DNA of 44,971 nucleotides from a virus (Duplodnaviria; Caudoviricetes): IMG/VR virus record IMGVR_UViG_3300018067_000117, positions 1 through 44,971 of that record; one strand, 5' to 3'. The notes under the pieces are model-generated. The model was not told where the DNA came from. It did not search any database and worked only from the letters and a program-made list of their open reading frames with translations. Each line of letters begins with the position of its first letter. The first letter of the stretch is position 1. This document shows, piece by piece, positions 500 through 12,720 of the stretch. The position numbers and the translations under genes are program-made.

Positions 500-2467
500 T
501 TACACCTCCCCTAACAGTTGCAGTGCTTGTGACACCGATATCATCGACTTCGCTTCCGGCACATACGCGCCGATAGACAGGATGGACAGGCCCTCCGCCG
601 CCTTCCACGCCAGCACCCGCTTGATAGCCGGGTCCGCCACGTCCACGCCGTTCAGGACAATTTCCTTGTCCGAGAGGACGATGGACCGTAGGTCCGAGCC
701 CGGAGCAATCCGGCGGAACGTCGTGGCGTACTCCGCCTTCGCAATGACCGTCAGCCGGTCGAACAGCACATGCGTCTGCGGCAACGCCGCATGCAGAAGC
801 TGAAGCACCTTGCCCGTGTGGTCATGCGCCTTCAGGATGTTCAAGAACCGGTTCTCCCCTTCGGACGGTACCAGATCCAGATACAGCTTGCTCACATGCG
901 CCAGCGTTTCCACCACCTTGGTTGCCGCCGCCTGCGGATTCAGAATCTGGTCCCCCAGATAGAGCAGGGCTTCATCCATCGGGTAGGTCGGCACGTCGAA
1001 GATGACCGGTGTCACGTCGAGAGCTTCGCAGGCCATCCGGTTGAAGTCACGAATCAGCCCGTTGGGCTCCGGCTTGATGACCGGGACCGTCTCCGTCCAG
1101 ATGCGGCCCGTCTGCCCGTCGAGACTCAGCGTCTCCACGTCCTTGAACGACTCCACCGAGACACCCACGCCGACGATGCAGGCCCGGTTCATCGCCCGTG
1201 CGACGACTGCGGCATGGCTCGTAAGCCCACCCTTCATCGTCACGATGCCGACTGCCGCCTTCATGCCCGCCACGTCATCCGGTGTCGTCTCGTCTCGCAC
1301 GAGAATGCAGGGTTCCTTGCACTTGATTGCATCTTCCTTGGTGAAGACGGGCTTACCCGTCACCACGCCGCTGCAGGCCGAGATACCAAGATACGCGGGC
1401 TCCTTTTCAAACTTCGGGTCCAGTTGAACCTGCTGGGCTTCATCCAATTGCTTGATGGATACCCGCTTGACCGCTTCCTTCGCATCGATCAGCCCCTGCT
1501 TCACGAAATCCGTGGCGATCTTGATGGCCGCTTGAGGCGTCCGCTTGCCGCTACGAACCTGCAGGAGATATAACTGGCCGTCCTGCACCGTGAATTCGAT
1601 ATCCAACATCTCCCGCTTTTTGTTCTCCAGTTCGATGACCTGTTTCAACAGGGCATAGTGGAGACTGGGGTTCCACTCCTTCATCGCGTCCAGCGGGCTG
1701 GGCGTCACCGCGCCGGAGACGATATCCTCACCCTGAGCATTGACCGCAAACTCCCCGGTCACCGTCATGCCGCCGGTATCAGGGTTGCGCGTGAAGAGCA
1801 CGCCCGTGCCGCTCTGGTCATTCAGGTTGCCGAAGACCATGGCCTGCACCGTCACTGCCGTGCCCCACGAGCGGTCGTACCCGTTATCCTTGCGGTAGAA
1901 TTCCGCCCGCTCGTTGTCCCAGCTTTTGAAGACCGCTTCAATGGCGTTCAGTAGCTGGGTCTTGGCATCCGGAAATTCCACCCCGGTCTGCTCACGATAC
2001 GCATCGAGCGCAAACTTCAGATCCCCGTGGAACGACTCCTTCCGAAGACCGTTCACGACGGACCCATACATCTCCACGAGCCGCTTGAAACTGTCAGCGA
2101 AGCACTTCGGGCCGAGCTTCTGTGCCCAGAGCATGGCGTTGGCCTCTTCGATCCCCACGTTGAGGATCGTATCCATCATGCCGGGGCATGAGACACGGGC
2201 TCCAGACCGCACCGACAGCAACGGCAGATAGCCGAAGTGCTGCTCCAGCTTCTTCAGATACTCCGGTAGTGCCTTGGCAATCGCCTTCATGGTCGTCACG
2301 GGCTTCTTGTCGTACTCGGCCCAGACGGACGTGGGAATGACGAAGCCCGGAGGTACCGGCACGCCTTCGTTGGCGAGCCAGAGGAGCCCTGCGCCCTTGC
2401 CGCCCAACAATTCAGTTGAGCCTGCGACCTCACCCTTTTCGAATCCAAACGGGAAGAACTGCTGCAT
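500..2467 (-). CDS. Pyruvate,phosphate dikinase-like protein (ATP-grasp + phospho-His swivel domain; PEP/pyruvate barrel replaced)
   Basis: Motifs LLGGKGAGL, LSVRSGA, PGMMDTILN, VQAMVFGN, FTRNPDTG, DIEFTV, LQVRSGKR, GGLTSHAAVVAR; about 655 aa. Start ATG 2467 or GTG 2482. Confidence 0.9.
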   Translation of the reverse strand: MQQFFPFGFEKGEVAGSTELLGGKGAGLLWLANEGVPVPPGFVIPTSVWAEYDKKPVTTMKAIAKALPEYLKKLEQHFGYLPLLSVRSGARVSCPGMMDTILNVGIEEANAMLWAQKLGPKCFADSFKRLVEMYGSVVNGLRKESFHGDLKFALDAYREQTGVEFPDAKTQLLNAIEAVFKSWDNERAEFYRKDNGYDRSWGTAVTVQAMVFGNLNDQSGTGVLFTRNPDTGGMTVTGEFAVNAQGEDIVSGAVTPSPLDAMKEWNPSLHYALLKQVIELENKKREMLDIEFTVQDGQLYLLQVRSGKRTPQAAIKIATDFVKQGLIDAKEAVKRVSIKQLDEAQQVQLDPKFEKEPAYLGISACSGVVTGKPVFTKEDAIKCKEPCILVRDETTPDDVAGMKAAVGIVTMKGGLTSHAAVVARAMNRACIVGVGVSVESFKDVETLSLDGQTGRIWTETVPVIKPEPNGLIRDFNRMACEALDVTPVIFDVPTYPMDEALLYLGDQILNPQAAATKVVETLAHVSKLYLDLVPSEGENRFLNILKAHDHTGKVLQLLHAALPQTHVLFDRLTVIAKAEYATTFRRIAPGSDLRSIVLSDKEIVLNGVDVADPAIKRVLAWKAAEGLSILSIGAYVPEAKSMISVSQALQLLGEV

Positions 2468-2506
2468 GATGATGTGCCCCACTCCTTGGGAATTTCTGAC
2501 TTACCC

Positions 2507-2751: not shown

Positions 2752-4101
2752 TCAGTGTGTTCTCCGGGGATCGCTGCTTCCCCCACCAATATACTCCAAG
2801 TAGACTTCAACAATCGGCACGTCCTTGAGCGTGGGGTCACCTGTCCGATAGGGCTCGCCGCGCTCGACGCGGACCACTCGGAACTGAGCACCGCTGCCAA
2901 GCAGGACTTCGCTCTCCGTCCGTCGTCCTTCTTTTCCAGCTTCTAGATCCTTCGCATCTACCGTGGGGGCCTGCGTGTAGTCGGTGACTTGCCACAACTC
3001 CGGATTCTTCTGCCAGAACAGGTCCGCCAGTTCTTTCGGTCCCATCGGTTCCGGATTCGGGATGCGGGGAAACTCGTGGCGGAGCCGTCGCACGCTCTCC
3101 ACGGACGCCACCTTCGTGCCCGCTGGGAGCACGATGTGGAACCGCACGGCAGACCCGACTTCGTCCTGATGTTCCACCAACACGCCAGAGTGCGAGCCGA
3201 ATCGGTGACCGATGCTTTCCCACTTCCCCAGTGCCGGATAGCTCTTGGCGCGTCCCCCAGCGTCTCCGACCATCGTGGAGGTCAGGCCCTTCTCTTCCCA
3301 GACCGTGCCGTCTTCGGCCATCGCCTGTAAGTCTTCTATCGACACACCGGGCAGATAGGCCCCCCGTTCCACCGTAATCGCTTCAGGTAACTCGTACCCA
3401 TGCACGCCAATGGCTTCGTCCAGCTTGTCTGCTGCCGCTTGCACTCGCGCCAGACGCTCCAGATCTGGGCCTGCCCGCTGGATGCTGAACATCATCGTCG
3501 GTCCACCTTCGACCGGACGGTAGTAGGCGTTGATGACGATGCGTCCGTCCTCTACCCGGTGATATGGATCGTCCGGATCGTAATCTTTCGCACCATGTTT
3601 CCCCATCGGATGCCCAAAGCGGGCAATAGTTTCAGGTGTCACTTCATCGCGGGGATCGACCGGGTAGCCGGTTTTATACTCGCCCTCTTTCACTTTGATG
3701 CTGGGCACCCATTCGTTCTTCTCCGGATCCCAGCCCACCCGTCGCATTTCCTCTGGCGTGGCTGGCCGCACGAAATGATCGACAATCGGCACCTTATAGG
3801 TGCCCCGTCGCAGATCGTTGACGTCGTGGTAGCCGAAGCCTGCATAGTCATCCAGCGCCTTGGCGTGCTCGTGCGGGAGGTTCTTCGCCCACTCCGCCAC
3901 TGGGCCTTGCTCGTGCCACTGGTAACCCTCTTCACTGGTGAACGTGCGCCCGCTCGTCTTCACCCACTGCCCACCCGTCGATGAGCCCTTTGGGCCACGG
4001 GGCTGATTGGGATCGTACTTCTTCGCTCTGGAGACGATGAAGAAATCCCCCGGCTTCATTTCGAAGCGATCCGCGTTGGGGTCTTTTGCAATTGAGTGCA
4101 T
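2752..4101 (-). CDS. VIP2/Alt-like (R-S-E clade) ADP-ribosyltransferase with N-terminal PRG tag
   Basis: ALDDY...VNDLRRG helix, ITVERG, GLTSTM, TESEVLLGSGAQFRVV; N-term KYDPNQPRGPKGSSTGGQW. Confidence 0.8.
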   Translation of the reverse strand: MHSIAKDPNADRFEMKPGDFFIVSRAKKYDPNQPRGPKGSSTGGQWVKTSGRTFTSEEGYQWHEQGPVAEWAKNLPHEHAKALDDYAGFGYHDVNDLRRGTYKVPIVDHFVRPATPEEMRRVGWDPEKNEWVPSIKVKEGEYKTGYPVDPRDEVTPETIARFGHPMGKHGAKDYDPDDPYHRVEDGRIVINAYYRPVEGGPTMMFSIQRAGPDLERLARVQAAADKLDEAIGVHGYELPEAITVERGAYLPGVSIEDLQAMAEDGTVWEEKGLTSTMVGDAGGRAKSYPALGKWESIGHRFGSHSGVLVEHQDEVGSAVRFHIVLPAGTKVASVESVRRLRHEFPRIPNPEPMGPKELADLFWQKNPELWQVTDYTQAPTVDAKDLEAGKEGRRTESEVLLGSGAQFRVVRVERGEPYRTGDPTLKDVPIVEVYLEYIGGGSSDPRRTH

Positions 4102-4334
4102 CAGTAGAGCTTTCCCGGTGGGGCCTGCTCATCGGTCTTCATCCACTCGCCGCCCCACACTTCCAGCACGTACAGGGCCTTACGAGCGTTCTCCGTGGGG
4201 GCATAATAGCCGTTGTTCGGGGGCTGCATCTCTGGCGTGTTCAGCACTCGCTCCAGTTCCCGATTATCTGGGACGGCCCACACCCCATTGTTGACGGTCG
4301 CCAGTTCCCCGGACCCCAATCGAATCGTAATCAC
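4101..4334 (-). CDS. Hypothetical protein
   Basis: 77-aa ORF translationally coupled at both ends. Confidence 0.7.
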   Translation of the reverse strand: MITIRLGSGELATVNNGVWAVPDNRELERVLNTPEMQPPNNGYYAPTENARKALYVLEVWGGEWMKTDEQAPPGKLY

Positions 4335-7018
4335 CGGTATTTCCCCTGCATAATGTCGAAAATCAAATTGAAGTGCTCGGGCCGCTCGCGGGCAAACGTG
4401 ATGGGGTCCGCCAGATACGACTCCACGCCTGTGGACACCATCTCCGTGGAGATGTCATGCGGATAGAGCTTGGCCGAGTACGGGTCTGGAAACTTGCCCC
4501 GCAACGCTTCCTCATCGTCTTCCAGCGCAGGGCTCACCGTCTTCAGCTTGTAGACCTCACGCGGCTTGTTCGCCAGTTGCTCTCGCACGTTAATGGCCGC
4601 TTGCCGTGCCGCGCTACTGTTCAATTCAATGTGGTGCGCCACTTCGTGATGCACCGTACGCTCCAAGTCTCGTCCCTCACCAATCGCAATCCCCGCAATG
4701 GTGGCGTGGGCTCGACGGGTAGCTGATTTTTCCAACTTCAATATGGCCGGAATAGCATACGTCCCGTCCGGGTTTTTGACGAACGGTCCCTCCGTGCCTC
4801 CGAAAATCTCACGGAGCTTGCCCATCTGGTCTTCCGGTATGTTGGTCGGTACGAACGCCCCGGACCCGTCGAACCGCCGGAACTGCTCCAGTGCTCGTCT
4901 CGCACCCGCTGCTACCCCCGGATGCAACGGATTCTTCGGATCGTCCGTGAATTCCAGCTTCGACCGCTCCGCTGGTGCTACCTTCAACAGTTCTCTCGCC
5001 TGTTGATTCAGCGCATGCCGCTTCTTCGACGCCACTTCGAACCGCTCGTGGAACACCTTCTCCAGTGCGTTCGCTCGCTGGTAGGACTCCAGCTTCTTCG
5101 CAGCGGCTCCGTCCGCCTTCAACGGCTTCTTCCGGCCCTTACTCAGATCCTCAGACCACGTTTTCCATGCGTCCGCCAACTCCACCCGCATCCGGTCAAG
5201 AATCACGCCCTCACGGTCAGATCGCTTGACCAGCGCCATGAAATCCCGACGCTTCTGCTCGTGCGGGGACCGATCCCCCCGTGTCTCGGAGAACTTCCCT
5301 TCGGCGTCTCGCGGGTGAAGAACCTCGTCCCATCGTAGCACTTTGACAAATGTTACGTCAACCTTGCGGGCTGTTCCTGACTGGAGAACCTTCACGGTCA
5401 TCGTGTTACCCGGACCCTTGCTCACCACTTCGAACCGAGTACCACGGGGAAGAATCACTTCCTCTTGATGATCGTACCCGTGTGCGCCCAGTTCTTCGTT
5501 CACGTCGATGTGACCCAACCCCTTAGGAGCCAACACAGTCAAAATCGAATGATTTTCCGCTCTATACGCCCCGATATCCAGACGAATGTCATCAATTTTT
5601 GATGAATTCTTCGTAGTAGACACGTAACCATCATCTTGATACACGTCCCCAACATTTAGACCGTCCATCACGTAATTCGGCACAGTCCTAGTCAAAGACG
5701 TATCTTCAGATAAGGTGTTATTCCGCATGTGAGCATCAAGCAACGCTACTTTGTCGCCCAATAGACTCTCAAGCTCCACCCCTTGATCCCATGTTTCCCC
5801 TTGGGCTCGATGTCGCTGACCCGTCCTTCGAAGCGTGTCGTTGAGATAACTCGCACCACCCTGCACATAATCAAAGATGGCGAAGTTGATATCGTGCCCC
5901 CGCTGGAGTCGGTCGTACTCCGCTTTATCGAAATCCTTCGGCGCACCTTCGATGATCTTTGTCCACTGGCCTTCGGCATCACGGGGCTGAGCAGGACTAT
6001 ACTTCAGGGCCAACCGGGTCAGGGCTTCAATCGCCGCGATTTGCTTGCGGCCCTTGAACGTCCACCGTCCGGACGGCTCCTGCGTCATGTACTGGGTGAT
6101 GTAGGGATAGGCGGCAGCGTCCGCTTGGTAGAACGCCAGTTGCAGCGTGACGAAGTCTGATGGGTTCATCCCCACCTTCTTCGCCTTCGCCGTCAGCTTC
6201 GCCGCAACGGAGACATCTGTCTCGTCACTCCAGCCTCGGAACAACGGCCCGATCAGGTCGTGGTTCAGTAGCTCCGTGGCCAGTGTGATATCCTTCTCGC
6301 TGAACCCCTCCTCACGAAGCACTTTTTGAAGGATGGGAATGGTGTGCTCGTGTTGATGCTCCTTGCCTTCGCCTTCCTCAATCGCTTCTGCCTTCCCGAT
6401 ATCGTGCAGAGCAATGGCCGACGCCATCAGCGTCTCAACATCACTCCCGAAACGGTCGGAGATACTCGCTAGGTCTTCACGGGATAGCTGCGTTTCCCAC
6501 TCCCGGCCTACGTCCGTGGTGTGGGACTCGATGCTGCCCATCTCGGTGTGTGTCGAGCGGGGATAGTGCTTCGCCGTGACCGGGTACTTGGCCTTGAACG
6601 CTGCGATCTGCCCGCCCACTTTCGCCCACTTGCCAGACGCATCACGGGGCTGAGTCGGATCAAACTTGACAATCCATTCTGGACGCACACCTCCAGCAAA
6701 ACGAGCCGTGCGGGAACCTTTGGGACTCTTGCGGCCCGGTGTCAGGGGCTTCTCAAAAAAGAACGCCGACTTCGGTGCCCGAATTTCCACCACCGTGGCT
6801 CCGGGTGTCGGCTCCGGATAGTCCAGTCCCTCCGCGAACCGCTGAGCCTCTTCACGGGATTCCGTGGCCCAGACCAGTCCCTCCTTACCGGGCTTCAGTC
6901 CCTCTCGATGGATGGCCTCCACGTCTCGCTCACGGGTGCCGTGGTACAGCGTGACGAACTGTCCTTTGACATCCCGTGGGTGCTGGGAAGCATCCCACTT
7001 CAAGAGAGCCGCAAACAT
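4331..7018 (-). CDS. Polyvalent protein: Tpt1/KptA-like ART + HD domain + VIP2-like ART + zincin metallopeptidase
   Basis: LYHGT...GLKP; ALHDIGK...H...NHD...QAD; LTRT...YVSTT...QEEVILPRGTRFEVV; HHEVAHHIE...E. Four PRD-x2-G-x-W/F repeats precede the domains. Probable start ATG 7018. Confidence 0.8.
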   Translation of the reverse strand: MFAALLKWDASQHPRDVKGQFVTLYHGTRERDVEAIHREGLKPGKEGLVWATESREEAQRFAEGLDYPEPTPGATVVEIRAPKSAFFFEKPLTPGRKSPKGSRTARFAGGVRPEWIVKFDPTQPRDASGKWAKVGGQIAAFKAKYPVTAKHYPRSTHTEMGSIESHTTDVGREWETQLSREDLASISDRFGSDVETLMASAIALHDIGKAEAIEEGEGKEHQHEHTIPILQKVLREEGFSEKDITLATELLNHDLIGPLFRGWSDETDVSVAAKLTAKAKKVGMNPSDFVTLQLAFYQADAAAYPYITQYMTQEPSGRWTFKGRKQIAAIEALTRLALKYSPAQPRDAEGQWTKIIEGAPKDFDKAEYDRLQRGHDINFAIFDYVQGGASYLNDTLRRTGQRHRAQGETWDQGVELESLLGDKVALLDAHMRNNTLSEDTSLTRTVPNYVMDGLNVGDVYQDDGYVSTTKNSSKIDDIRLDIGAYRAENHSILTVLAPKGLGHIDVNEELGAHGYDHQEEVILPRGTRFEVVSKGPGNTMTVKVLQSGTARKVDVTFVKVLRWDEVLHPRDAEGKFSETRGDRSPHEQKRRDFMALVKRSDREGVILDRMRVELADAWKTWSEDLSKGRKKPLKADGAAAKKLESYQRANALEKVFHERFEVASKKRHALNQQARELLKVAPAERSKLEFTDDPKNPLHPGVAAGARRALEQFRRFDGSGAFVPTNIPEDQMGKLREIFGGTEGPFVKNPDGTYAIPAILKLEKSATRRAHATIAGIAIGEGRDLERTVHHEVAHHIELNSSAARQAAINVREQLANKPREVYKLKTVSPALEDDEEALRGKFPDPYSAKLYPHDISTEMVSTGVESYLADPITFARERPEHFNLIFDIMQGKYR

Positions 7019-7507: not shown

Positions 7508-7870
7508 TCAGAAAAAGCGAGCGGTGACGTTGACGGCATTCGTCAGGGTGACCATTCGCAGACGGGCGAACTTCGCCACCACGTTCGTCGCTTCGATGCG
7601 TCCCGCGAACGTGGGGTTCAGCCCCGTGTTCAACGTGGCCTTAGTCACGTAGTACCTGTCTTCGTTGGTGTCGGCCATTTGCAAATCCACGGCGAACGCA
7701 CCGGGGTTGGCGGCGAAAAGAATTTCTACCGATAGGCAATTCGGAAAATTCTCATGTCGTTGCAATCCCACGGCAAGACTGCTGGAGGATGCTGCCACGG
7801 ACTCATTGTTCCAGACCGCCGCTGGACGGCCAGCTTCCAAGGTTTGGGCGGTAGTACCGTAAGCAGGCAT
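7508..7870 (-). CDS. Putative virion adaptor protein, paralog A
   Basis: SD AAGGAG; clear paralog of 8819..9190 (SSSLAVGLQR.EN..NCLSVE.LFAANPGA). Confidence 0.75.
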   Translation of the reverse strand: MPAYGTTAQTLEAGRPAAVWNNESVAASSSSLAVGLQRHENFPNCLSVEILFAANPGAFAVDLQMADTNEDRYYVTKATLNTGLNPTFAGRIEATNVVAKFARLRMVTLTNAVNVTARFF

Positions 7871-8818: not shown

Positions 8819-9190
8819 TCAGAAAATTCTGGCCGTGACCTTCACCGCATTGGTCAGCGTCACCATCTTGAGGCGGACGAACTTGGCCACGATGTTTGTG
8901 GCTTCGATGCGCCCAACGAACTGGGCGCTCAGACCCGTTTCGTAGGACGCTTTGGTCACAAAACACTTTTCTTCGTTCGTGTCAGCCGTCTGCAAATCAA
9001 CTTTGATCGCGCCGGGGTTGGCGGCGAACAACAACTCCACCGACAGGCAATTCGAAAGATTTTCATTGCGCTGGAGTCCCACCGCCAGACTACTACTGCC
9101 TGCCGTGACGTTCTCATCATTCCACACCGCTTGCGGAATCCCACCTTCCGCTGTTTTGGGCGGGGCCGATCCATACACAGGCATAATCAC
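8819..9190 (-). CDS. Putative virion adaptor protein, paralog B
   Basis: Paralog of 7508..7870. Confidence 0.75.
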   Translation of the reverse strand: MIMPVYGSAPPKTAEGGIPQAVWNDENVTAGSSSLAVGLQRNENLSNCLSVELLFAANPGAIKVDLQTADTNEEKCFVTKASYETGLSAQFVGRIEATNIVAKFVRLKMVTLTNAVKVTARIF

Positions 9191-9507: not shown

Positions 9508-9790
9508 GTTTCTTCCTCCACCCTTCCACGACACTGCTAGTCACCAACGCCCGGACACCGGGTCTGATTCTCCGGTGCGAGTGCGGAGTAGGTGTCGGAA
9601 GCGACTCAGCGGTGGTCAATTCCACGAACAGACTCGTCACCAAACTCCTGCACTCAATTGCAGTCATTGTGGCCTGTAGCCGCACGGTCACCCCAGTGCT
9701 GGTGACTTCTTCCCCTTCAATAACCGGTGGCTCAATGACACCCGCGCCGGTCGTCAGGCCATAGAGCCCCGGATAGAGCCCGCCGAGCAT
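9500..9790 (-). CDS. Hypothetical structural-module protein
   Basis: 96 aa, coupled to the collagen gene (TGATG). Confidence 0.6.
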   Translation of the reverse strand: MLGGLYPGLYGLTTGAGVIEPPVIEGEEVTSTGVTVRLQATMTAIECRSLVTSLFVELTTAESLPTPTPHSHRRIRPGVRALVTSSVVEGWRKKHG

Positions 9791-12720
9791 CAGAAATACC
9801 AGCCCCAGCTACCGGCTTGCACCACCACATCGGTGTTGGCCAATTCGTTGGCGAAGCGGACGGCGAACGTCCCATTCGCCGTGCAGACATAGCGGCCTTG
9901 GATGATGTGAATCAAATCCACGGCTGGCGTCACCGTGCTGGTCAAGAGCGTCATGTCATCCCGCACCGTGTTGTGCCGCTCCGTCCACGTCGCCACGCCT
10001 GCGGCCCCACTGGCAATCACCTGATTCAGATGGTGAAAGCTCAGGGCTCCTGCGGGACAGTTCACCCCGCACTTGTGGCCCGTGTTTGCCTGTGCCGACT
10101 GGAACACCACGTAGAAATAGAAGGCATACACCTGACCACTGACAACGGGGAACGTGAGGTTCGTCACATCCGCGAACACCCCGGCTCCGGCGTTGATCGT
10201 CTGGTTCGCTGTCTTCTTCAACAGGTTGAACAGCACCGGGCCGGGGATGCCTTGGATGCCCTGAATCCCCTGTGGCCCCACCTCTCCGGTGTCACCCTTC
10301 GGACCCTGAGCCCCGGTATTCCCCTGCGGACCCTGAGCGCCTTGGGCTCCGGTGTCGCCCTTGATGCCTTGCGGTCCCTGTGGACCGGTCACCGGGGTTC
10401 CGGGTACGCCCTGTGGTCCTGCTGGTCCTTCCGGCCCTGCTGTCCCAGTGTCACCCTTGATACCCTGCGGCCCTTCTACCCCCTGTGCGCCTTGAGCACC
10501 CGTAGCACCGGTTGGGCCTTGTGGCCCTGCTGGACCCTGAGGACCGGCAGGACCGGCTGGGCCTTGTGGAAACGCCCCTGCGTCGGCCCATTCACCCGTG
10601 TCTGTGTCCCAGACCCACAGATGCCCGGTGTCGGCCACAATCCATGCGTCACCGGGTTCTCCGGTTGGTGGTAAATCGGCAACGGTCGCTGCCGTGCCCT
10701 GCAGATCGATGCCTGCGCCCTCGGGGCCTTCTGGACCTTCGGGGCCTTCGGCACCGGGCACACCCTGTACGCCTTGTGGACCAGCAGGGCCTTCTGGTCC
10801 CGTGGGACCGGCAGGACCGGCCTGTCCTTCGGCTCCCGGTATACCCGGTACACCCTGTGCGCCTTGTGGACCGACGGCTCCCTCGGTTCCTTCCAGTCCA
10901 GAGGGACCGGCCACACCCTGTGGACCTTGGGGGCCTTCTGGACCCGTGGCTCCGACCGGGCCTGCTGGCCCCATCACCCCCGGTGACCCTTGGGCTCCCG
11001 CAGGGCCTTCAGGACCGTCCGCGCCCGCTGGTCCGACTGGTCCTACTGGACCTTGTGGCCCCGGATCACCATCGGTGCCACGGAAGCCTCGTGGGCCTTG
11101 GTCACCCTGTGCGCCCGGATCACCTTGGGGACCGATGTCTCCCTGATCGCCCTTTGGTCCTGCGGGGCCTTCTGGACCCGTCGCACCGGCTGGTCCCTCC
11201 GGTCCCGTCCATCCCTGTTCTCCTTGCGGTCCTGCTGGTCCAGCCGCTCCCGGAGCCCCTTGAGCACCTTGTGGACCCGTTGCACCGTCTGCTCCAGCCG
11301 GTCCAATTGGTCCCGCAGCACCTGTCGGGCCTGCTGGACCTTGATCACCTTGTACACCAGCTACTCCTTCGGGGCCTTGGGGTCCAACAGCGCCAGTATC
11401 GCCTTGAGTTCCTTGCGGACCTTCGGGACCAACTGGTCCCTGAATTCCTTGGGGGCCTTCTGGACCAGCTTCCCCAGTTTCTCCAACCGGACCAGCGGGT
11501 CCGATGGGTCCACTTTCACCTTGCGGGCCGACGTCACCGGTATCTCCTTTCGGGCCTGCGGGTCCGGGCGGGCCTTGCGGACCTTCTGGTCCGGGCGGTC
11601 CTTGGCTCCCCGGAGGACCGGGCACACCACCCGGACCCTGTGGACCGGGCTCTCCCTGATCACCCTTTGGACCCTGTGGACCAATAGGACCGGGAATCGT
11701 ATCCGCGCCTTCCGACAAGAGCACCACCGCGAGTCGGCTGTTGTGCCCAAACTCCGCCACGCCTCCCGGTCCACTCTGCGACACCAACGACACCGCTACC
11801 GAGAACCAGTCCGTGGAGGGTATGACTTGCTCGATCTGCCAGACTTGATGCTTCACGGCCACGTCAGCATCCTGAATCAGAATGCGAGCCGTGGGCGGCG
11901 TCATCTCAAAAAACACATGCGCGTCGAAGCCTTCATCCGTCAACCAGTCCACGGCGATCAGAGTTGCTTCGGTCTGATTGGCCGCATTCCACCGGATCTT
12001 CCCGGCTCCGGGGTCTTGCATCTGTTGGTTATTCGCATCAGCCTTGTAGAAAAACACCGATGAGGATGGGGCGATGGGCAGATCACTGATATCACTCGCC
12101 GGGATCTTGTCCAGCGTCGAGATAACGCCCGTGCCCTCCATACTCCGCATGTAGCCAGTCGGCAGTTCTGACAGGGCCTGAGCGTTCGGCAGGTACTCTT
12201 CTCCGCTCGCACGTCCAATGGCGTTCCGGCTTTGCACAATGAACGGGGTGGCTCCTGCTCCGGCCACATCCAACCGTCCATCCGTGATCGTCAGATAATC
12301 GCCCAGTGCAATTTCTTCGGACGGTCCCGGTCCAGTCTCCCGGCCTCTGAGTAGCTGACCGGTGGTAAAGGGCTTGCCCTCTTGGGCCAACGTCTGTAAA
12401 TCCAGCAGCGTCTTATCGGTGATCGTGGCGGCGATCAGGTCGCCTGCGACGATGCTCCGGGCTGTCGTGCCTTCTTGAGCCCGTTGCAACGTGAACGTGT
12501 CGCCGTCTCTCGCCGTGACACGAGCAATTTCAGCATTGGTGGGATCGGGGAGCACGTCTTTGGGCCAGACGGTGGCGTTGAAGGGCGGGTCAGGAAAGCG
12601 ATCCCCGTGCCCGGTGGGGACCATCAACTCTGCGCCGGATACAGCGGGCCACGGAGCTTCGGCTACCGCCGATACCGCAAAATTCTTGTAGTCATCCACG
12701 GCAAGAAGCTCCCTGTGCAA
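9790..12720 (-). CDS. Collagen-like tail/head fibre protein
   Basis: Two long Gly-X-Y tracts, internal GDAWIV...GHLWVWD module, N-term [19 protein letters not shown]-terminal beta domain; TTG start. Confidence 0.9.
10240..11695 (-). repeat. Collagen (Gly-X-Y)n coding repeats
   Basis: 9-nt periodicity (GPQ/GPA/GPE triplets), interrupted at about 10575-10715. Confidence 0.95.

Follow-up and report, generated by a model that had tools for sequence, protein, structure and literature searches.

How might a tailed phage build several different enzymes into one protein, load them into its head and pass them to the host as separate molecules? This question is raised by positions 2,752 to 7,018 of the IMG/VR virus record IMGVR_UViG_3300018067_000117, whose full length of 44,971 nucleotides is the window analyzed here, a tailed-phage fragment of about 45 kb with terminase, RecA and ligase genes. 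Two adjacent genes in this region, encoding a four-module polyprotein of 895 residues (P0001) and an ADP-ribosyltransferase (ART)-like protein of 449 residues (P0002), carry a short peptide tag ahead of each of five enzyme modules. Across other phages, the residue in front of this tag covaries with the junction residue of the prohead protease encoded alongside it. Judged from these sequence patterns, it is moderately likely that the modules are cut apart in the prohead and that the tag loads or retains them for ejection. Loading and ejection of accessory enzymes in tailed phages are known in detail for few models such as T4.

The five copies follow the motif [KR]-[FYW]-x3/4-[HQ]PR-x3(8)-G-x-[WF], and the four tags in the 895-residue protein and the one on the neighboring ART are all in frame where the original prediction placed them. 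Specifically, reading each predicted cut residue followed by its tag on the minus strand, tag 1 is K-WDASQHPRDVKGQF (6956..7000), tag 2 is K-FDPTQPRDASGKW (6626..6667), tag 3 is K-YSPAQPRDAEGQW (5963..6004) and tag 4 is R-WDEVLHPRDAEGKF (5291..5335), while tag 5, in P0002, is the long-loop form K-YDPNQPRGPKGSSTGGQW (3964..4020). The preceding residues are thus K, K, K, R and K. Scanning all six frames of the window with PR[DG]-x2-7-G-x-[WF] returns exactly these five matches, versus a residue-shuffle mean of 2.0 and maximum of 8; a stricter K/R-aromatic pattern returns seven matches versus a mean of 0.54 and maximum of 5, with two of the seven outside P0001 and P0002. By themselves these counts are weak evidence against shuffled sequence, and the tag is judged real because all five copies fall at the module starts of two neighboring genes and because the peptide recurs in homologues and in hundreds of other phage loci.

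Comparison across these loci separates the element, as read from the alignments, into two parts: a constant core of about 14 residues (14–19 in the window) and a variable preceding residue, which is K, R, D, N, E or L, or is missing when the tag opens the protein. Lys or Arg as a component of the tag is ruled out, other phages carrying D, N, E or L at this place. The original prediction of a loading signal and/or a protease site cut after K/R is thereby divided, the cut gaining support from the covariation described below and the K/R falling outside the conserved peptide.

Five degenerate DNA scans with follow-up fetches yielded at least 625 tag loci in IMG/VR and in genomes representing many phyla. 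Loci of at least 2 kb form 294 groups, of which 291 bear the tag and 125 encode a prohead protease detected by local profiles, which were built because Pfam family searches of 48 contigs were insensitive (6, 1, 12 and 1 matches). The junction residue of each protease was read at a fixed place after the catalytic motif (before the domain for XkdF) as K, R, D, N, E or L, its presence was scored at positions −3 to −1 of internal tags, and labels were shuffled among 26–58 protease clusters. Sixteen of the 125 groups with an unresolved junction, L013 included, and six with N-terminal tags only were left out. Across the resulting 103 contig groups, the mean match is 0.73–0.79 versus 0.27–0.33 after shuffling (p ≤ 5e-5), and the covariation is kept at 35, 45 and 60% protease clustering. 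Control positions −10 to −8 upstream of the tags give no signal in these 103 groups. By protease type, matches are found for K in 110/126, N in 21/22, D in 19/24, E in 7/8, R in 11/27 and L in 2/4 tags.

The same relationship is recovered in a hold-out of 50 unused contigs, for which the rule was fixed beforehand. Five protease profiles matched 31 contigs, from which one duplicate and eight unresolved cases were dropped; with junctions read by eye and the tags already visible, 17 of the remaining 22 tags match versus 8.3 expected (p = 1e-5), and the control window matches in 2/22. Four of the 17 matches have a Met within five residues, a possible start, and leave 13/18 when set aside. Moreover, homologues of modules 2, 3 and 4 and of the second ART are preceded by Leu sites in a phage that encodes a Mu-like protease (G005, G009 and G035 being one phage), and a phage with Glu-preceded tags was found to encode a Glu-junction protease. 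Kinship alone is insufficient to account for the covariation, because one set of modules is preceded by Lys or by Leu in accordance with the protease, and the residue before tags varies between K and R, or between D and N, inside a single protease family.

Other leader peptides occupying the same slots show a related pattern, GGPGSG leaders being protease-matched with E in 8/8 and with L in 2/2 cases, and GHPF..GNQ leaders with L in 4/4 and with K in 4/4. The motifs GGPGSG[NR].. and GD.EGHPF[RH]GNQ[WY] are present in the tag slots of L011, L016, L022, L028 and L051. In 15 groups with an SPP1-type portal, where no protease was found within the limits of the profiles and the fetched DNA, 18/25 tags are N-terminal, versus 11/251 where a protease was found. 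Within each protease family alignment a His and a Ser are invariant, and the junctions of these families are seen mostly without the tag peptide. DUF2213 (PF09979; L279–L346, L424–L622) has an invariant His and Ser and a junction of Asp, Asn or Arg-x by subfamily, features consistent with a prohead protease.

For the phage of the window itself, the likely protease is indicated by close relatives: G039 (112 kb, complete; terminase 82%, RecA 74%), G029, G015 and G003, the first 60 of 62 kb being covered for G015 and G029. In the relatives, as in the window, tail-like genes are followed by tagged genes and then by the dikinase, and the four genomes carry 16, 11, 11 and 7 tags, respectively, nearly all after Lys and mostly in an additional cluster flanked by portal and protease. 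In G003, G015 and G039 the protease is of the XkdF type, Lys junctions are visible on it as well as on the scaffold and the capsid protein, and the K, K, K, R, K series of the window would fit such a protease. Three scaffold-like proteins of the relatives (L143:2081-3154, L144:2085-3203, L145:122-1246) end in K-x-D-D-P-R-T-G-x-F-D-T-A-[FY]-L-R-R-R, which is loosely tag-like, and G039 has shorter variants, K-[YF]N-x-NH[GD]P-x-x-GRF, ahead of its protease gene (L626:16479-18272).

The tag separates modules of different enzymatic types. P0001 (4331..7018, minus strand; ATG 7018 to stop 4331) comprises, in order of translation, module 1, a small ART-fold domain (6665..6955, minus; Pfam ART-PolyVal E 0.009 and Tpt1/KptA E 0.07, both under curated cut-offs); module 2, an HD-domain protein (6005..6625, minus; Pfam HD E 0.001, under the curated cut-off); module 3, an Alt/VIP2-type ART (5336..5962, minus; Pfam ADPrib_exo_Tox 30 bits, cut-off 23.4); and module 4, a helical region with a zincin-like HExxH...E domain (4334..5290, minus), assigned by motif with no Pfam match. 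P0002 (2752..4101, minus) has a propiece of about 27 residues ahead of its tag and a domain matching Pfam ADPrib_exo_Tox at E 0.0007, under the curated cut-off. Of the enzyme identities originally proposed, the VIP2-like ART is above its cut-off and the zincin HExxH, with its downstream Glu, is invariant in 5/5 aligned homologues, whereas the Tpt1/KptA-like ART, the HD domain and the neighboring ART remain as matches below the cut-offs. The guanine-cytosine content of module 3 is 0.50 versus 0.59 for the window. Searched against PDB sequences, modules 2 and 3 gave no match below E 0.09, and an AlphaFold model of P0001 from a three-sequence alignment has a predicted local distance difference test (pLDDT) score of 39, too low to be of use.

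Modules are exchanged among phage proteins exactly at the tag. Homologues start behind a tag in 3/3 cases for module 1 and 15/18 for module 2; for module 3, two stand behind the same tag type and two behind another leader, and for module 4, four and four. Altogether, 47 homologue matches begin near the module start, with a tag directly upstream in 34, another leader motif in seven and neither by pattern in six. In L156, a module-4 homologue follows the portal gene, and a fusion protein there consists of a MuF-like region, module 1 and a P0002-type ART, in that order, joined by a tag at each boundary.

Beyond these relatives, a 32-position tag profile matches at least 3,940 representatives of 50%-identity protein clusters at E ≤ 0.001, one of which contains 21 matched stretches. 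The tag would mark candidate injected effectors and their boundaries across thousands of protein clusters. Fusions to head proteins account for 95 of 454 distinct tagged open reading frames (ORFs): 46 portal, 24 MuF, 5 both, so that 29 carry MuF, and 20 protease. A portal, MuF or protease gene lies in the fetched DNA of 187 of the 291 tag-bearing groups. The original prediction expected tags on scaffold or portal proteins; the record contains no head module, portal, protease and capsid matches being absent among the scanned window ORFs, and the fusions to portal, MuF and protease are found in relatives and other phages. On portal proteins the tag lies after the portal domain 69 times and before it twice. 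MuF as an obligatory partner of the tag is ruled out, since it was present in only one of the 22 S78 groups whose fetched DNA includes a portal. A scan of 70 of the 114 tagged proteins shows that other cargo includes ARTs and Nudix, 2H, PI3/4-kinase-like, zeta-toxin and RelA/SpoT domains, and none of the 70 has a Pfam match on the tag peptide itself. PHROG covers the tag only as part of the larger phrog_30637, phrog_15528 and phrog_12708. At least 60 residues follow the tag in 560/568 cases, usually through a Gly-rich linker, and some stand-alone proteins carry the tag at the very N-terminus, with no preceding residue. A related protein with an N-terminal tag occurs in 17 groups, mostly Melainabacteria (Gastranaerophilales) genome bins (L164, L176, L179, L182, L196, L204, L218, L220, L221 and others).

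Cultured carriers include Streptomyces phage Gilgamesh (gp48) and homologues of gp15 in cluster H mycobacteriophages such as Konstantine, and tagged portals are encoded by Orimi01, PhiXhv-5 and phiE131. Konstantine gp15 (L642:6998-7771) is annotated as a "head maturation protease", but it is a very basic protein opening with the tag, so the annotation looks doubtful. Table 1 of PMC4324244 includes its Patience homologue, gp18, among the virion proteins identified by mass spectrometry; this forms the sole experimental link of the tag to virions, and an indirect one. The literature searches returned no description of the tag, although supplements could list the motif.

Structurally, the tag is predicted to be a small ordered turn-and-bridge unit. 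AlphaFold models built with 52 aligned tags show a short helical turn and an Arg-to-aromatic bridge, with pLDDT values of 78 and 87 over residues 1–20. The loop has three residues in 591 of 749 tags and eight in a further 126, proportions that depend in part on the search patterns. A fold search with the 32-residue tag model returned nothing at E ≤ 0.001; the ESM Atlas gave no match by features, and its top two structure rows, a portal-PBECR1 cluster and a viral ART cluster, are below threshold. A partial match (E 0.18) to a chain of PDB 9RKU, from the baseplate of phage 7-7-1, leaves the first half of the tag uncovered and is taken as chance.

HK97 gp4 cuts its capsid protein after a lysine, and Lys or Arg at the predicted junctions is the likeness of the present loci to HK97 gp4-type (S78) and XkdF (S78_2) systems; the difference is that the protease here is predicted to free effector enzymes from accessory polyproteins besides scaffold parts. 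In T4, internal proteins IPI–III and Alt bear the capsid targeting sequence (CTS), an N-terminal head-cargo peptide tied to the gp21 prohead-protease site (L/I-x-E), with an ART among the cargo, as described in the text of PMC9026906. The tag resembles the CTS as a short peptide on head cargo whose adjoining site is matched, at the sequence level and for the window phage via relatives, to the phage's own prohead protease. However, cutting removes the T4 CTS, which precedes the site, whereas the tag follows the predicted cut and would stay; the tag is also unrelated in sequence, is repeated within polyproteins and occurs with at least five protease families, the CTS being confined to one phage clade. 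The tag would work like the CTS with gp21 but is not a member of the CTS class, because its conserved part would be kept.

P0001 and P0002 also appear to fit the phage polyvalent class. The accounts of polyvalent proteins (PMC5512222) and of head-packaged NAD+/ADP-ribose enzymes (PMC9503650) describe late proteins that combine several domains, among them ART, zincin-like and other effectors, with fusions to MuF, portal or head peptidase and with predicted packaging and injection. Likewise, P0001 has at least two unrelated effector domains, three of the four calls being under cut-offs or motif-based, both proteins lie among late/virion genes, and homologous modules sit beside the portal in L156. 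Neither a recurring leader peptide nor a protease-matched junction is described in the passages covered from these two papers, although supplements could list the motif. MuF polymorphic toxins place variable effector domains behind a head protein (main text of PMC5576092), whereas P0001 and P0002 have no MuF domain, with no Phage_Mu_F or Phage_min_cap2 match in either, and many tagged HK97-portal loci lack MuF. The words "motif", "linker" and "cleav" do not occur in the main text of PMC5576092, nor is the tag mentioned in the outline and passages covered from PMC12796354.

Together, these features suggest that P0001 and P0002 are head-cargo precursors built as cassettes, each consisting of a predicted cut residue (Lys/Arg here), a conserved peptide of 14–19 residues and an enzyme. 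After entry of the precursors into the prohead, the phage's prohead protease would cut immediately before each tag, leaving the released enzyme with the tag as its new N-terminus. The tag would then bind inside the head, the inner capsid wall or core being its most probable partner, and would thereby keep the enzymes in place through maturation until their ejection into the host with the DNA. The cut before the tag is very likely, given the covariation, and, once the cut is granted, a loading or retention role is likely; the portable capsid-loading tag originally envisaged has the standing of a hypothesis. If sufficient for packaging, the tag would extend T4-style protein loading to other phages, and it predicts the residue after which each uncharacterized head protease would cut.

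Several observations weigh against this reading. The main test was not blind, the tags having been seen first, two junctions were assigned by hand, and the proteases' own junction residues are predicted from sequence. Five of the 22 hold-out tags miss, Arg lineages match poorly in the main test (11/27), alternative leaders miss in the R (2/9) and D (0/2) groups, and the dropped group L013 looks like a mismatch, with a Lys-type protease family beside Asp-preceded tags. Lys specificity for the window phage is borrowed from relatives, as the window has no protease, portal or capsid gene, and one relative, G029, gave no protease match in a Pfam family search. P0001 and P0002 lie outside a head module, flanked by tail-like genes and a pyruvate phosphate dikinase gene. 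A capsid-protein partner does not sit easily with a tag that stays the same while capsids and portals vary greatly. Finally, Patience gp18 is in virions without the tag, opening instead with another motif common to gp17; the tag is therefore replaceable or dispensable there.

The constancy of the tag across unrelated head proteins and host phyla, together with its place after the predicted cut and its persistence on cargo whose fusion to portal, MuF or protease makes a further loading signal superfluous, would also suit an ejection or delivery leader acting after maturation on DNA, the portal channel or a host factor, with loading left to the fused head protein or another sequence. This alternative is unlikely: stand-alone proteins with an N-terminal tag would still need to enter the prohead, and many tags carry a net negative charge, an uncommon feature for DNA binding. 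Because the tag always adjoins the predicted cut residue and the accompanying proteases are of one fold class, the whole peptide might instead be an extended recognition site (a prime-side exosite) or an N-terminal folding cap with no address role. That is quite improbable, given that the tag stays constant over widely divergent protease families, is conserved even at protein starts and in loci for which the search returned no protease, and is mostly missing from the proteases' own junctions.

Module exchange exactly at the tag, and the sharing of labels among kin, are what a recombination handle or inherited linker on unprocessed proteins would leave, with the covariation reflecting shared lineage ancestry. 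Such an origin is highly improbable: it does not account for the same modules switching from Lys to Leu along with the protease, for Lys/Arg or Asp/Asn alternating inside one protease family, or for a signal that persists at 35% clustering and is gone seven residues upstream. Cutting before a retained loading tag is accordingly the preferred account. Its broadest form, put forward tentatively and as less likely than not, would be a lineage-independent cargo code, in which a protease-tuned cut residue is combined with one of a few interchangeable, short, retained leaders binding something common to tailed phages or hosts, any domain behind a leader being loaded and injected, and the tags revealing unstudied protease specificities (DUF2213 Asp/Asn, XkdF Lys, Mu-like Leu).

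The start of P0001 is placed at ATG 7018 in preference to TTG 7060, because the homologues P0003 and P0015 open with the identical MFAALLK. Upstream of the tagged genes lie a phrog_10330 virion structural gene and collagen-like fiber genes, one of which encodes a 976-residue Gly-X-Y protein (9790–12720, minus strand), and two paralogous genes of 120 residues are located at 7508–7870 and 8819–9190. Between P0001 and P0002, a 77-residue ORF (4101–4334, minus strand) had no family match in the scan and has a 68% homologue in G029 after the module-4 homologue; by position alone it is a possible partner or immunity-like gene. Immediately after the tagged genes lies a pyruvate phosphate dikinase-like gene (500–2482, minus strand) with PPDK_N and PEP-utilizing domains, which is also next to tagged genes in four relatives at 67–70% identity.

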